Positions 35,188-55,082 of a stretch of 59,314 nt of DNA are shown here, in pieces. The first letter of the stretch is position 1. Each line of letters begins with the position of its first letter. The notes under the pieces are model-generated. The model worked only from the letters and a program-made list of their open reading frames with translations. It made no database searches and was not told the DNA's origin. This DNA comes from Candidatus Limnocylindrales bacterium (GTDB lineage: Bacteria; Chloroflexota; Limnocylindria; Limnocylindrales; CSP1-4): assembly GCA_052144055.1 (NCBI GenBank), contig JBKQRF010000159.1:1-59314 (forward strand). Direction: 5' to 3'. The position numbers were made by a program, and so were the translations under genes.

Positions 35188-36656
35188 TAGACGTGTTTCG
35201 AGGCGGTGAGCGTCGCGGGCAGGGCAAGAGCCAAGCCCCGGCGCTCAGCTGCTTCGGTGAGCTTGACGCTAACGATCCGGTGCGAACCGCGTCTGGCGCC
35301 ACTCGTCGCCCCGATGCGAGCGAACGTGTTGATCGCCATCGCGCGACGGCCCTCGTCGTCGGTCTCGTGCCACAACTTCCCCAGATTTGCGAGCCAGGCG
35401 ACCGCGTCGTCGGGGTCGAGGCCGTCGAGCTCGACTCGTGCGCGGAGCAGCTGCTCGCGCTCTTCCTTGAGCCGCATGATCTCGGCCAGGATCTCCGTTG
35501 GTGCGCGCCGTGCCTCGATGGCAACCATCTCAAGCCCGAGGGCGCGGAGACGGGAGTCGATCCGTGCTACACCGAGGCGATCCGGCATGGCAGGCGGCGA
35601 CTGGAGCGCGACGCGGACCCGGGTGGCCGTGTCGCGGTTAGGGGCGGCGCCTTCAAGCATCTGACCGATCTGGTCCTCCAGGATTTCGACCGGGACCTGC
35701 TTGACGGACCAGCCGGGGCAGTCATGAACCGCGGCGTCGTAGTGCCGATACACGGGGTAGCGCCGCTGCCTCGAACTAGCGATCACATTGCCCTTCACGC
35801 GACGGCCGCAGGCCTCGCACACGAGCGGTCCGGAGAGGGGGTAGACCCGGGCCTTTCGAGTCCGGCTGCCGGTGCGGGTCCGGAGGCGGCGGTGTTCCAA
35901 GGCCTGCTCGACCACCCGCGCGTCAATCGGTGGCAGGAAGGTAGTCCGCCGTCCGTCGGACAGCCGACCGCAGTACAGCGGGCTGCGCAAGACACCACGG
36001 ACCGTCCAGAGGGTCAGGCTGAGCTGGGCCGCGATCGCCTTGTCGGAGTGGCCGGCTGCAGCCAGACGCCAGAGCTCGAGCGCCCGGGGCATCGTGTCCG
36101 GATCTGGTTCGACGATTTTCCGGTCGGCGCTCCGGCGGAAGCCAAGCGGGACGAGCCCTCCGCCCTGATCGTTGTGCAGCCGGGTCTTGGCTGCGTAGCC
36201 CTCCCGGATGCGCTTCCCGAGGCGACGACTGTACGCCTCGGCCTCTACCGTCTCGCGAGCCCAAGACTCCCAGGCATCCTCGTCGGAGGTGACGATGCGT
36301 TCGTCGCAGAAGAGGATCGCGGCACCCGCGGCGTGGAGCGCCGAACGCGCCGTCACCGCGGTCTCGAGGTCGCGCGCGAACCTGCTCACGTAGCCGACCA
36401 CCAGGACGTCGTAGTCGCGGCCAGCGCATGCCAGCATCTCCGCGAACTGCGCCGTGGAGCCGATTGTTCGGCCCGAGTGGGCAACCATCCAGCTGATCTG
36501 CGTATCGACCATCCCGTAGCGCTCGATGGCGCGCTCCCGTTGGTCGCGTTGTGCCGCAGGCCCGAAGCGGTCGGCCTGTCGGCCCGTCGACTCCCGTCCC
36601 CAGTGAGCGGCCCTCTGGCCGCGCAAGTCATCGAGTGAACGGGGGAGGGCTTTCAT
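35130..36656 (-). CDS. large serine recombinase (integrase type)
   Basis: Resolvase-type N-domain with RESTGRQ (Ser nucleophile context) and VLVVGYVSRFARD. There is a long recombinase domain, a Cys/His cluster CEACGRRV...HDC and a coiled-coil-like tail. ATG 36654-36656 overlaps the upstream stop (ATGA). The last 19 codons (YGGRYWIRTSDLTDVNRAL) are antisense to tRNA-Val. Confidence 0.88.
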   Translation of the reverse strand: MKALPRSLDDLRGQRAAHWGRESTGRQADRFGPAAQRDQRERAIERYGMVDTQISWMVAHSGRTIGSTAQFAEMLACAGRDYDVLVVGYVSRFARDLETAVTARSALHAAGAAILFCDERIVTSDEDAWESWARETVEAEAYSRRLGKRIREGYAAKTRLHNDQGGGLVPLGFRRSADRKIVEPDPDTMPRALELWRLAAAGHSDKAIAAQLSLTLWTVRGVLRSPLYCGRLSDGRRTTFLPPIDARVVEQALEHRRLRTRTGSRTRKARVYPLSGPLVCEACGRRVKGNVIASSRQRRYPVYRHYDAAVHDCPGWSVKQVPVEILEDQIGQMLEGAAPNRDTATRVRVALQSPPAMPDRLGVARIDSRLRALGLEMVAIEARRAPTEILAEIMRLKEEREQLLRARVELDGLDPDDAVAWLANLGKLWHETDDEGRRAMAINTFARIGATSGARRGSHRIVSVKLTEAAERRGLALALPATLTASKHVYGGRYWIRTSDLTDVNRAL

Positions 36657-36853
36657 GTCGTCCGGTCCTTCCTCGGACGCCCCGTGCGTCGGCTGGCGGC
36701 CCACGCTCGAACGTCGATGACCCGCACGAGCCAGATCGGCCCCACCTTCATGGCTGGCAGCCTTTCGGCCAGGATGGCCTGACGGAGTCGACCGGTCGAG
36801 CGGCCGACGAGACGCGCAGCCTCGGTGACGGTGATGTAGCCATCAGGGTCCAT
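36653..36853 (-). CDS. excisionase-family / MerR-like helix-turn-helix DNA-binding protein
   Basis: MDPDGYITVTEAARLVGRSTGRLRQAILAERLPAMKVGPIWLV is a typical excisionase-type HTH. It is translationally coupled to the recombinase. Confidence 0.7.
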   Translation of the reverse strand: MDPDGYITVTEAARLVGRSTGRLRQAILAERLPAMKVGPIWLVRVIDVRAWAASRRTGRPRKDRTT

Positions 36854-54821: not shown

Positions 54822-55082
54822 GGATCTGGCCTAGCTGCGAGTTCCGTCGGAGCCCGATCTAGAGAGCGCCCCTCGGGTGGTCCGCCTGGTGAGTTCGGCG
54901 GGGAACTGGGCTGACGGCAGAAGACGACGGTGGGCCGCGGTTCGGACGCAGTGCCGGCCACCATCCACTGATGGTGTGGGGGCTGGACAGCCCCGCAGAT
55001 GCCCGTCCGCAGGTCCCGGCCGCCAAACAGGACTGCCGCTACGTCTCTGGGCCTTTGCTCGGAGCGCGTTGTTGGCGCGTCC

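Follow-up and report, generated by a model that had tools for sequence, protein, structure and literature searches.

When a serine recombinase and a tyrosine recombinase lie behind the same tRNA gene, are they two islands stacked at one target or parts of a single element? We asked this of the region downstream of tRNA-Val, from position 35,188, on contig JBKQRF010000159.1 of a Candidatus (Ca.) Limnocylindrales bacterium (Chloroflexota). The window is the whole stretch of DNA that was analysed, 59,314 nucleotides, and constitutes an entire 59.3-kb contig (C159) of a 345-contig metagenome-assembled genome (MAG; G000). A preliminary description had drawn a composite island consisting of module A (35.1-41.4 kb), which carries the serine recombinase, and module B, which starts with the tyrosine recombinase, and had offered two options: that module A was inserted between the tRNA and an older island, or that both move as one unit. 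Comparison of sequences suggests that the region is probably the tRNA-proximal part of one composite element, in which the serine integrase would carry out insertion and an Xer-like tyrosine recombinase would swap modules bounded by a palindromic site. The features on which this reading turns are as follows.

35111..35187, plus strand: tRNA-Val(CAC), identified by ARAGORN, the integration target on the attL side
35171..35187, plus strand: 17-nucleotide 3' end of the tRNA, TCCAGTATCGCCCACCA, with one other copy in the MAG (C135:2544-2560), the candidate attR
35130..36704, minus strand: large serine recombinase (524 amino acids), with hits to Pfam PF00239 Resolvase (1.8e-9) and PHROG 95 integrase (1e-33)
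41464..42378, minus strand: XerD/XerA-like tyrosine recombinase (304 amino acids), Pfam PF00589/PF02899, SAM-like N-terminal domain present, catalytic R-K-HxxR-H-Y intact

Pairing of the two recombinases

The best matches of the tyrosine recombinase among recombinases in the PDB were XerD and XerA. It fell below the cut-offs of the NCBIfam XerA, XerC and XerD models, scoring 80.6 and 72.3 bits with the housekeeping XerC and XerD models (cut-offs of 335 and 330), and it scored 24.8 bits with the integron integrase model TIGR02249 (cut-off of 265). Unlike the single-copy chromosomal Xer, the gene was multicopy, with three to four copies in this MAG and up to five in relatives; the copies on contigs C154 and C325 of the MAG were 83-85% identical at the amino acid level. 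Its distribution was patchy, with 12 of the 121 family genomes containing it.

A search of the family genomes found a serine recombinase in the same orientation 3' of the tyrosine recombinase in 13 of 23 full-length loci. The linkage was then counted in 55 full-length tyrosine recombinase loci from species-representative Ca. Limnocylindrales MAGs, with flanks of 8 kb. A same-strand serine recombinase was present 3' of the tyrosine recombinase in 29 of the 44 loci whose 3' flank extended for 4 kb or more, at a distance of 1.1-7.2 kb, while a serine recombinase on the 5' side was found in none of 35 loci. The pairing held across serine recombinase clades that target tRNA-Val, tRNA-Pro, tRNA-Arg, tRNA-Glu or the comM gene. 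Because the order and orientation are this regular and independent of the target, and because no tRNA remnant lies between the modules in the composites examined, we conclude that the two recombinases form a recurrent architecture and not a chance tandem. Of the two options in the preliminary description, these counts speak for one linked unit, which may move as such, and against a separate insertion of module A in front of an older island. Such varied serine targets also suggest that the tyrosine recombinase is not a tRNA-specific integrase, which could not give this pattern. The earlier view of the enzyme as a phage-type integrase of the tRNA site likewise found no support, since the protein is XerD/XerA-like and has a palindrome of its own on the cargo side.

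A second composite in the same MAG illustrates the arrangement.

C154:9362-34596: composite at tRNA-Pro(CGG), with a serine recombinase overlapping the tRNA, PrimPol-DUF3987, and a tyrosine recombinase 83% identical to that of the window

The cargo of this element consists of an isochorismatase, a major facilitator superfamily (MFS) transporter, a type I restriction-modification system and an LCM methyltransferase, followed by a paralogue of the ABC operon found at the right end of the window. Contig C325 holds a third, partial composite of the same build. Tyrosine recombinase copies were more alike within one genome than between genomes, despite being paired with unrelated serine recombinases and replication genes. 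Since the within-genome copies are the most alike, modules of these composites appear to be exchanged or homogenized within lineages.

The serine recombinase of the window has the resolvase catalytic domain, with the catalytic serine visible in the translation in GRESTGRQ. PF07508 and PF13408 were not reported for it at E<=0.01, PHROG 95 covers residues 29-472, and relatives at 36-38% identity match both of these Pfam families. Its C-terminal 19 codons and stop codon are antisense tRNA-Val sequence. Homologues of this recombinase were found in 38 of the 121 family genomes, and 19 of 30 related loci have a complete tRNA on the opposite strand, directly adjoining the recombinase gene at its 3' end. 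The clade of the serine recombinase predicts its target: members of the window clade (59-63% identity) lie at tRNA-Val(CAC) in five genomes, and other clades lie at tRNA-Pro(CGG), tRNA-Arg(CCG or TCT) or tRNA-Glu(TTC), or inside comM. In G076:C13 and G099:C41 (loci L070 and L124) the clade inserted in the Mg-chelatase-like comM has an Xer-like recombinase 1.4-2.9 kb behind it.

In 11 relatives, divergence downstream of the same tRNA-Val begins right after ...CCACCA. The left flank of the closest relative, G009, is 96.6% identical to that of the window, and at the same tRNA-Val spot this genome has a different serine recombinase (26% identity). Junctions that lack a full tRNA keep 16-19 nucleotides of its 3' end (19 in C298 compared with C154, 16 in G111, 17 in G044 and 17 in C135), and on this basis the serine enzymes appear to recombine within the last ~17 nucleotides of the tRNA, the element restoring that segment. 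If the element supplied the last ~17 nucleotides of the tRNA, the tRNA gene would stay intact and the recombinase frame would run into it. Contiguous assemblies hold complete elements and tandem arrays bounded by repeats of tRNA 3' ends, such as an element of 14.7 kb in G111 and a 60-kb stretch of G044 (C1:1672000-1731999; L109-L111) with eight copies of the tRNA-Pro 3' 14-mer and four serine recombinase genes. A full tRNA-Pro was not found in that 60-kb stretch, where elements and their remnants seem to be stacked in a long tandem series. A comparison of C298:1-1500 with C154:9420-10896 showed an 89% identical serine recombinase joined to only 19 nucleotides of tRNA-Pro; the C298 frame extends 25 codons further, and the C-terminus of the integrase thus depends on its junction.

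The palindromic site

The regions 5' of 22 tyrosine recombinase genes were aligned. Conservation spans the start codon and ~95 nucleotides upstream and ends at a palindrome in all of them, beyond which the sequences of the 22 copies are unrelated. The palindrome is 19 bp long, ACAC(G/C)AT-N6-AT(C/G)GTG, and lies 62-80 nucleotides upstream of the recombinase start. On the 3' side of the recombinase gene no conserved end motif was found; homology ends at the stop codon, which is uninformative at such divergence. A position weight matrix (PWM) built from the aligned recombinase-adjacent sites was used to search for further copies, with the reversed sequence as a control. On the far side of the tyrosine recombinase the window has seven plus-strand cargo genes, as had been noted before, which as cassettes would fall into three modules: the RAMA nuclease, a pair of genes and the Hma (helicase-methylase-ATPase) system. 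The sites in the window are:

42379..42458: leader of the recombinase gene, ending in the palindrome ACACCATTCCACGATCGTG (42440-42458), from the alignment of 22 copies; PWM score 23.3
43632..43650: weak copy of the palindrome with three mismatches, in the 48-nucleotide gap after the RAMA gene; PWM score 11-13, doubtful alone
44909..44927: palindrome ACACGAGGTGGTGATGGTG, separating the two-gene module from the Hma operon; PWM score 16.1
54958..54977: strong palindrome CACCATCCACTGATGGTG, after Hma; PWM score 21.6

The spacer and right arm of the 44909 site recur in a site at C154:23705. Also on C154, a truncated, N-terminal second copy of the tyrosine recombinase gene (18157-18651) retains its own perfect site, and sites lie, as in the window, in gaps at gene-module borders: one behind the MFS gene, another behind hsdR and a third ahead of the LCM gene. 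A consistent polarity of the sites relative to gene starts did not hold for those in the window. Immediately after the 42440 site we looked for a tRNA-Val-like remnant; the window row of the alignment gave only a weak 'CCCACC' resemblance by eye, and the candidate was dismissed. In two comM-type composites (L160:5838-5878 and L157:~6282) a palindrome on the cargo side directly follows a tRNA-Pro 3' end, on the strand opposite to that expected for attL.

Across the MAG, a PWM score of at least 16 gave 157 matches, compared with 2 in the reversed sequence, and a score of at least 14 gave 165 distinct sites. The strongest sites were intergenic in 46 of 57 cases, compared with 28% of the genome on a crude gene map based on open reading frames. 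Sites were clustered, 78 having a neighbor within 5 kb (300 random trials averaged 47 and never exceeded 67), and contigs C154 and C186 held the most (seven each). The exact motif was tied to the recombinase in the family as a whole. The 12 genomes with the recombinase contained 149 matches, a mean of 12.4 (50 in G047, 26 in G135, 23 in this MAG and 17 in G099), and the 109 genomes without it contained 83, a mean of 0.76, with zero in 76 of the 109. The reversed motif matched twice in all 121 family genomes. Around the recombinase the sites were asymmetric, with 73 in 293 kb on the cargo side and 7 in 340 kb on the serine recombinase side, and serine recombinase elements lacking the tyrosine enzyme had almost no sites. 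At sites that are not adjacent to the recombinase, the contig pairs C122/C345 (96% identity) and C106/C325 (~90%), otherwise unrelated, are homologous precisely as far as the last base of the palindrome; breakpoints of this kind are the usual signature of site-specific exchange. A histogram of end positions from the search for shared modules was dominated by the recombinase gene and was not used as independent evidence.

These observations can be assembled into a model. The serine integrase would insert the element at the tRNA, and the Xis-like helix-turn-helix (HTH) protein and Toprim/helicase protein of module A would serve excision and replication of a circular form. The tyrosine recombinase, as comparison among loci shows, is no second tRNA integrase and instead the regular Xer-like partner of such serine integrase modules in Ca. 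Limnocylindrales. Placed at the distal end of such a module and transcribed away from its 19-bp palindromic core site, it would recombine copies of the palindrome and thereby insert, remove or swap adjacent modules. The right end of the element is not at 55,082, and the only candidate attR, the 17-nucleotide repeat, is that on C135. It is possible, though somewhat short of an even prospect in our judgement, that Ca. Limnocylindrales has in this way an integron-analogous capture system, in which a multicopy Xer-like recombinase and a 19-bp palindrome on serine integrase elements inserted into tRNA genes or comM stockpile and exchange multi-gene modules, phage-defense systems among them, with dispersed sites serving as docking points or representing scars.

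The main rival to a cassette function, which we infer, is a role in resolution or maintenance. The tyrosine recombinase might be an Xer/dif-like enzyme for multimer resolution or maintenance and the palindrome a res/dif-like site or operator, with the cargo varying by ordinary recombination. The XerD/XerA-like character of the enzyme, the replication genes carried by the elements and the failure to find a whole cassette shared between arrays all fit such a role. We nonetheless regard it as unlikely, since one resolution site per replicon suffices and the MAG has far more places with the motif than that, since sites are concentrated on the cargo side and at borders of gene modules, and since homology breaks exactly at sites that are not adjacent to the recombinase.

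Independent tandem accretion, in which an island with a tyrosine integrase and defense genes came first to tRNA-Val and a serine element was later inserted between them, is less probable still. The arrays in G111 and G044 attest that elements do stack in tandem at a single tRNA in these bacteria, and between composites the serine recombinases (36-40% identity) and replication genes diverge far more than the tyrosine recombinase (66-85%), which points to modular exchange. Yet the junction between modules A and B contains no tRNA remnant in the window (at 41.4 kb), in C154, in G076:C2 or in G002:C11, and the same tyrosine recombinase stands behind serine enzymes for four or five tRNAs and comM, a range of targets not expected of an integrase that is specific for one tRNA and whose copies are 66-85% identical. 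The strict order and orientation would also be unexpected from chance stacking. The idea that the tyrosine recombinase itself first integrated at a tRNA was rejected on account of its comM-linked copies and the lack of remnants. Least probable, and in our view very improbable, is that the palindrome is an operator for a host or element transcription factor and marks promoters: most sites are intergenic and the adjacent copy lies 62-80 nucleotides upstream of the recombinase start codon, yet the motif was not found in most of the recombinase-lacking family genomes searched and abundant in those with the enzyme, and homology between loci ends at the site.

Several observations weigh against the composite element that we prefer. 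No serine recombinase was present in the flank covered for 15 of the 44 tyrosine recombinase loci, and we did not find a composite in which repeats derived from a tRNA flank the two recombinases together. No whole module common to two arrays with different neighbors was found, a duplicated locus excepted. In the window the 43632 site is weak, and the 54958 site is not at a homology border: it lies inside a 29-nucleotide insertion within DNA otherwise homologous to C154. Some genomes lacking the recombinase have several copies of the motif, among them G082 with 14 (no recombinase found in its 630 contigs). Finally, the link C159-C186-C135, described below, rests on a shared repeat, an 85-nucleotide contig overlap and synteny with G009, and not on contiguous assembly. 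As an observation in its own right, the insertion in the window (54949-54977) is nearly all palindrome; it may represent a solo site or the scar of an earlier event.

Genes and extent of the island

The remaining genes of module A were analyzed for protein families. The serine recombinase, excisionase-like HTH and Toprim replication protein named in the preliminary description were all recovered with Pfam and PHROG.

36653..36883, minus strand: excisionase/MerR-like HTH protein (76 amino acids); weak match to PHROG 66 at 6.5e-6
37482..40118, minus strand: replication protein (878 amino acids) with DUF3854 (Toprim-like) and DUF927; Pfam, and PHROG 16213 DNA primase
40404..41369, plus strand: 321-amino-acid protein without a family match, whose C-terminal ~60 amino acids are homologous to proteins on C288 and C290

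Two genes without an assigned family lie between the replication protein and the tyrosine recombinase. At the position of the replication gene, other composites have PrimPol-DUF3987 or PrimPol-D5N, and G002:C11 has an 892-amino-acid protein with a C-terminal N6_N4 methylase domain. No conjugative transfer gene (FtsK/SpoIIIE-type Tra or type IV secretion system) was detected among the proteins scanned from 35.1-59.3 kb and C186, some small open reading frames being outside the scan.

The cargo genes beyond the tyrosine recombinase are all on the plus strand.

42531..43601, plus strand: HSDR_N-type PD-(D/E)xK nuclease fused to a RAMA domain (PF18755, PF04313); start uncertain, the longest open reading frame beginning at 42198
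43650..44908, plus strand: two overlapping genes (178 and 241 amino acids), unmatched in Pfam, PADLOC and NCBIfam
44980..54821, plus strand: Hma defense operon (PADLOC and Pfam)
44980-48480, plus strand: HmaA helicase, PADLOC 5.7e-187
48477-49076, plus strand: gene for a 199-amino-acid protein embedded between HmaA and HmaB, no family match
49083-51998, plus strand: HmaB methylase, DUF1156, PADLOC 4.8e-121
52002-54821, plus strand: HmaC ATPase, DUF499, PADLOC 2.9e-110

HmaA, HmaB and HmaC thus occur together in one operon. Hma has been described as a three-gene helicase-methylase-ATPase operon with a candidate defense function (Payne et al. 2021, PADLOC; PMC8565338); unlike the described form, that of the window has the extra 199-amino-acid gene between HmaA and HmaB. 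In G099:C97 (L106:793-15768) a serine recombinase of the window type (59% identity) lies at tRNA-Val and is followed by an Hma operon in opposite orientation (31-36% identity); a tyrosine recombinase was not found on the part of that contig covered by L106.

To the left of tRNA-Val, a ~1.4-kb segment (33663-35043) with an aldo/keto reductase gene (34005-34913) separates the conserved left flank from the tRNA. The segment is missing at that position in G009, G007, G010 and G012, and a 92% identical copy is present on another contig of G009.

The right border was less simple. The search for attR combined repeat finding, blastn-short and approximate matching of the terminal 13-24 nucleotides of the tRNA. 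There was no repeat of the tRNA-Val 3' end in 35188-59314 (last 13 nucleotides with <=1 mismatch, 16 with <=2, 20-24 with <=3-4), in agreement with the earlier impression that attR is not detectable here. Beyond the cargo the window contains:

55083..59103, minus strand: MacB-type ABC operon encoding an FtsX permease, an ABC ATPase and an adaptor-like protein with a peptidoglycan-binding domain (Pfam)
59100..59312, minus strand: 3' portion of a lipoprotein gene with internal repeats, truncated where the contig stops; C186 has this repeat at its end

The ABC operon had been taken as the point where core genes resume, which put the right border at 55,082 and the island at 19.6 kb. The operon had no match above about 70% nucleotide identity in 12 genus relatives, and it has a paralogue on C154 (89% nucleotide and 91-93% amino acid identity) that sits behind the composite at tRNA-Pro. 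Since it is absent from these relatives and has this paralogue, the operon is accessory and not core, and we rejected it as the core flank; that flank is found elsewhere, on contig C225. G007 has no serine recombinase at tRNA-Val, and the genes that it shares with G010 downstream of the tRNA map to C225, not to the window, leaving neither the 19.6-kb size nor the 55,082 border with support. The possibility that C154 and the window are alleles of two strains was rejected, as the left flank of neither contig is duplicated in the MAG.

The island instead runs past the end of the window (at least 24 kb). At that end (59100-59314), as at the end of C186, is a lipoprotein-like gene with ~200-nucleotide repeat units encoding CMRAHGVPNFPDP-type motifs, and such repeats break the assembly. 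C186 is 23.9 kb long and encodes a two-component system, GGDEF and EAL proteins and MarR; it had no orthologue in five genus relatives. C135 overlaps C186 by 85 identical nucleotides. On C135 the 17-mer at 2544-2560 is followed by a truncated serine recombinase of the G009 type and an aminotransferase, and the genes after the 17-mer are orthologous (88-94%) to those of G009:C45, which bears the same repeat. A scaffold C159-C186-C135, and with it an island of about 50 kb, is plausible from these overlaps. The aminotransferase is not adjacent to tRNA-Val in G007, and the DNA after the C135 17-mer may belong to an earlier round of accretion. To the left of the 17-nucleotide repeat, at a distance of ~0.9 kb, C135 carries a ParB-methyltransferase gene, possibly one that such elements typically have at their far end. 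ParB-domain/DNA-methyltransferase fusion genes occur as 70-85% identical copies on C135:231-1604, C209, C288, C290, C81 and C102.

Relation to known systems

With module A the serine recombinase islands that target tRNA-like genes gain a further member; the group includes the ssrA islands and the actinomycete integrative and conjugative elements (AICEs) of Mycobacterium. In the ssrA islands of Dehalococcoides, a serine recombinase of ~540 amino acids (DsiB) is encoded on the reverse strand next to attL, where a tRNA-like gene has its 3' end, and the islands are flanked by ~20-bp direct repeats of this 3' end and stack in tandem downstream of the target (McMurdie et al. 2011, PMC3146451). The elements described here belong to the same phylum, Chloroflexota, and share the gene order at attL, with the integrase gene beside attL at the 3' end of an RNA gene and on the opposite strand; they have a repeat of 16-19 nucleotides and form tandem arrays in G044 and G111. 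A far-border repeat of the ssrA-island kind was not found in the window, and a perfect 17-nucleotide copy lies on a separate contig, C135. Unlike the ssrA islands, the targets here are true tRNA genes (Val, Pro, Arg and Glu) or comM, and the integration module includes a Toprim or PrimPol replication gene. No DsiA-like small partner was found here, and an Xer-like recombinase with an array of sites has not been described for ssrA islands.

Integration into tRNA genes by serine recombinases is reported to be rare but real (PMC3218068), with AICEs in tRNA-Leu of Mycobacterium and phage phiRSM1 in tRNA-Ser as examples, and AICEs often carry Prim-Pol replication genes and recombine their modules freely (Ghinet et al. 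2011, PMC3218068). The present elements differ in that there is no FtsK/SpoIIIE-type transfer gene among the module A proteins scanned and in that the host phylum is a different one. Serine integrases that rebuild the tRNA 3' end from 16-19 nucleotides of their own DNA appear to be common in Ca. Limnocylindrales, and not rare. The point of interest is the recurrent pairing of such a tRNA-rebuilding integrase with an Xer-like recombinase that heads site-delimited modules, defense modules among them.

Integrons combine the tyrosine recombinase IntI, an adjacent attI and a one-sided cassette array with attC sites of 57-141 bp. Seen by analogy, the platform in the window resembles them, as its recombinase is transcribed away from an adjacent site, variable modules lie to one side with sites between them, and the cargo includes defense genes; an adjacent site and a one-sided variable array of the integron type are present in that analogous sense only. 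The sites differ from attC, being 19-bp palindromes with little conserved flank and not long imperfect hairpins, and unlike integron cassettes the modules are multi-gene, up to ~10 kb, and of mixed gene orientation, on a platform that rides on a serine integrase element.

The plasmid dif (pdif) modules of Acinetobacter are a second point of comparison, with 28-bp sites (11-6-11) acted on by XerC/XerD (PMC6449649, PMC13141974). The two systems are alike in that short arm-spacer-arm palindromes bound accessory modules, in that an Xer-type recombinase is implicated, and in that shuffling is deduced from homology that ends at the sites. Compared with pdif, the recombinase here is dedicated, multicopy and element-borne and not the chromosomal XerC/XerD of the host, and the site is shorter (arms of 6-7 nucleotides, spacer of 6) and lies on chromosomal integrative elements.

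A literature search on Limnocylindria and integrons returned no paper, and an integron-like arrangement of two recombinases was not found in the literature searched. This analysis describes versions that target tRNA genes, an association of the motif with the recombinase across whole genomes, and the asymmetry of sites in the flanks. If the cassette function is correct, it would explain how Hma and type I restriction-modification systems are shuffled between mobile elements of abundant uncultured soil and peat bacteria, using a simple pair of recombinase and 19-bp site. It would also represent a second, independently built solution to the problem that integrons solve, in a phylum without such a platform in the literature searched. 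The recombinase and its site would thus work like an integron or like dif modules, by analogy with both, yet fall outside the definition of either.

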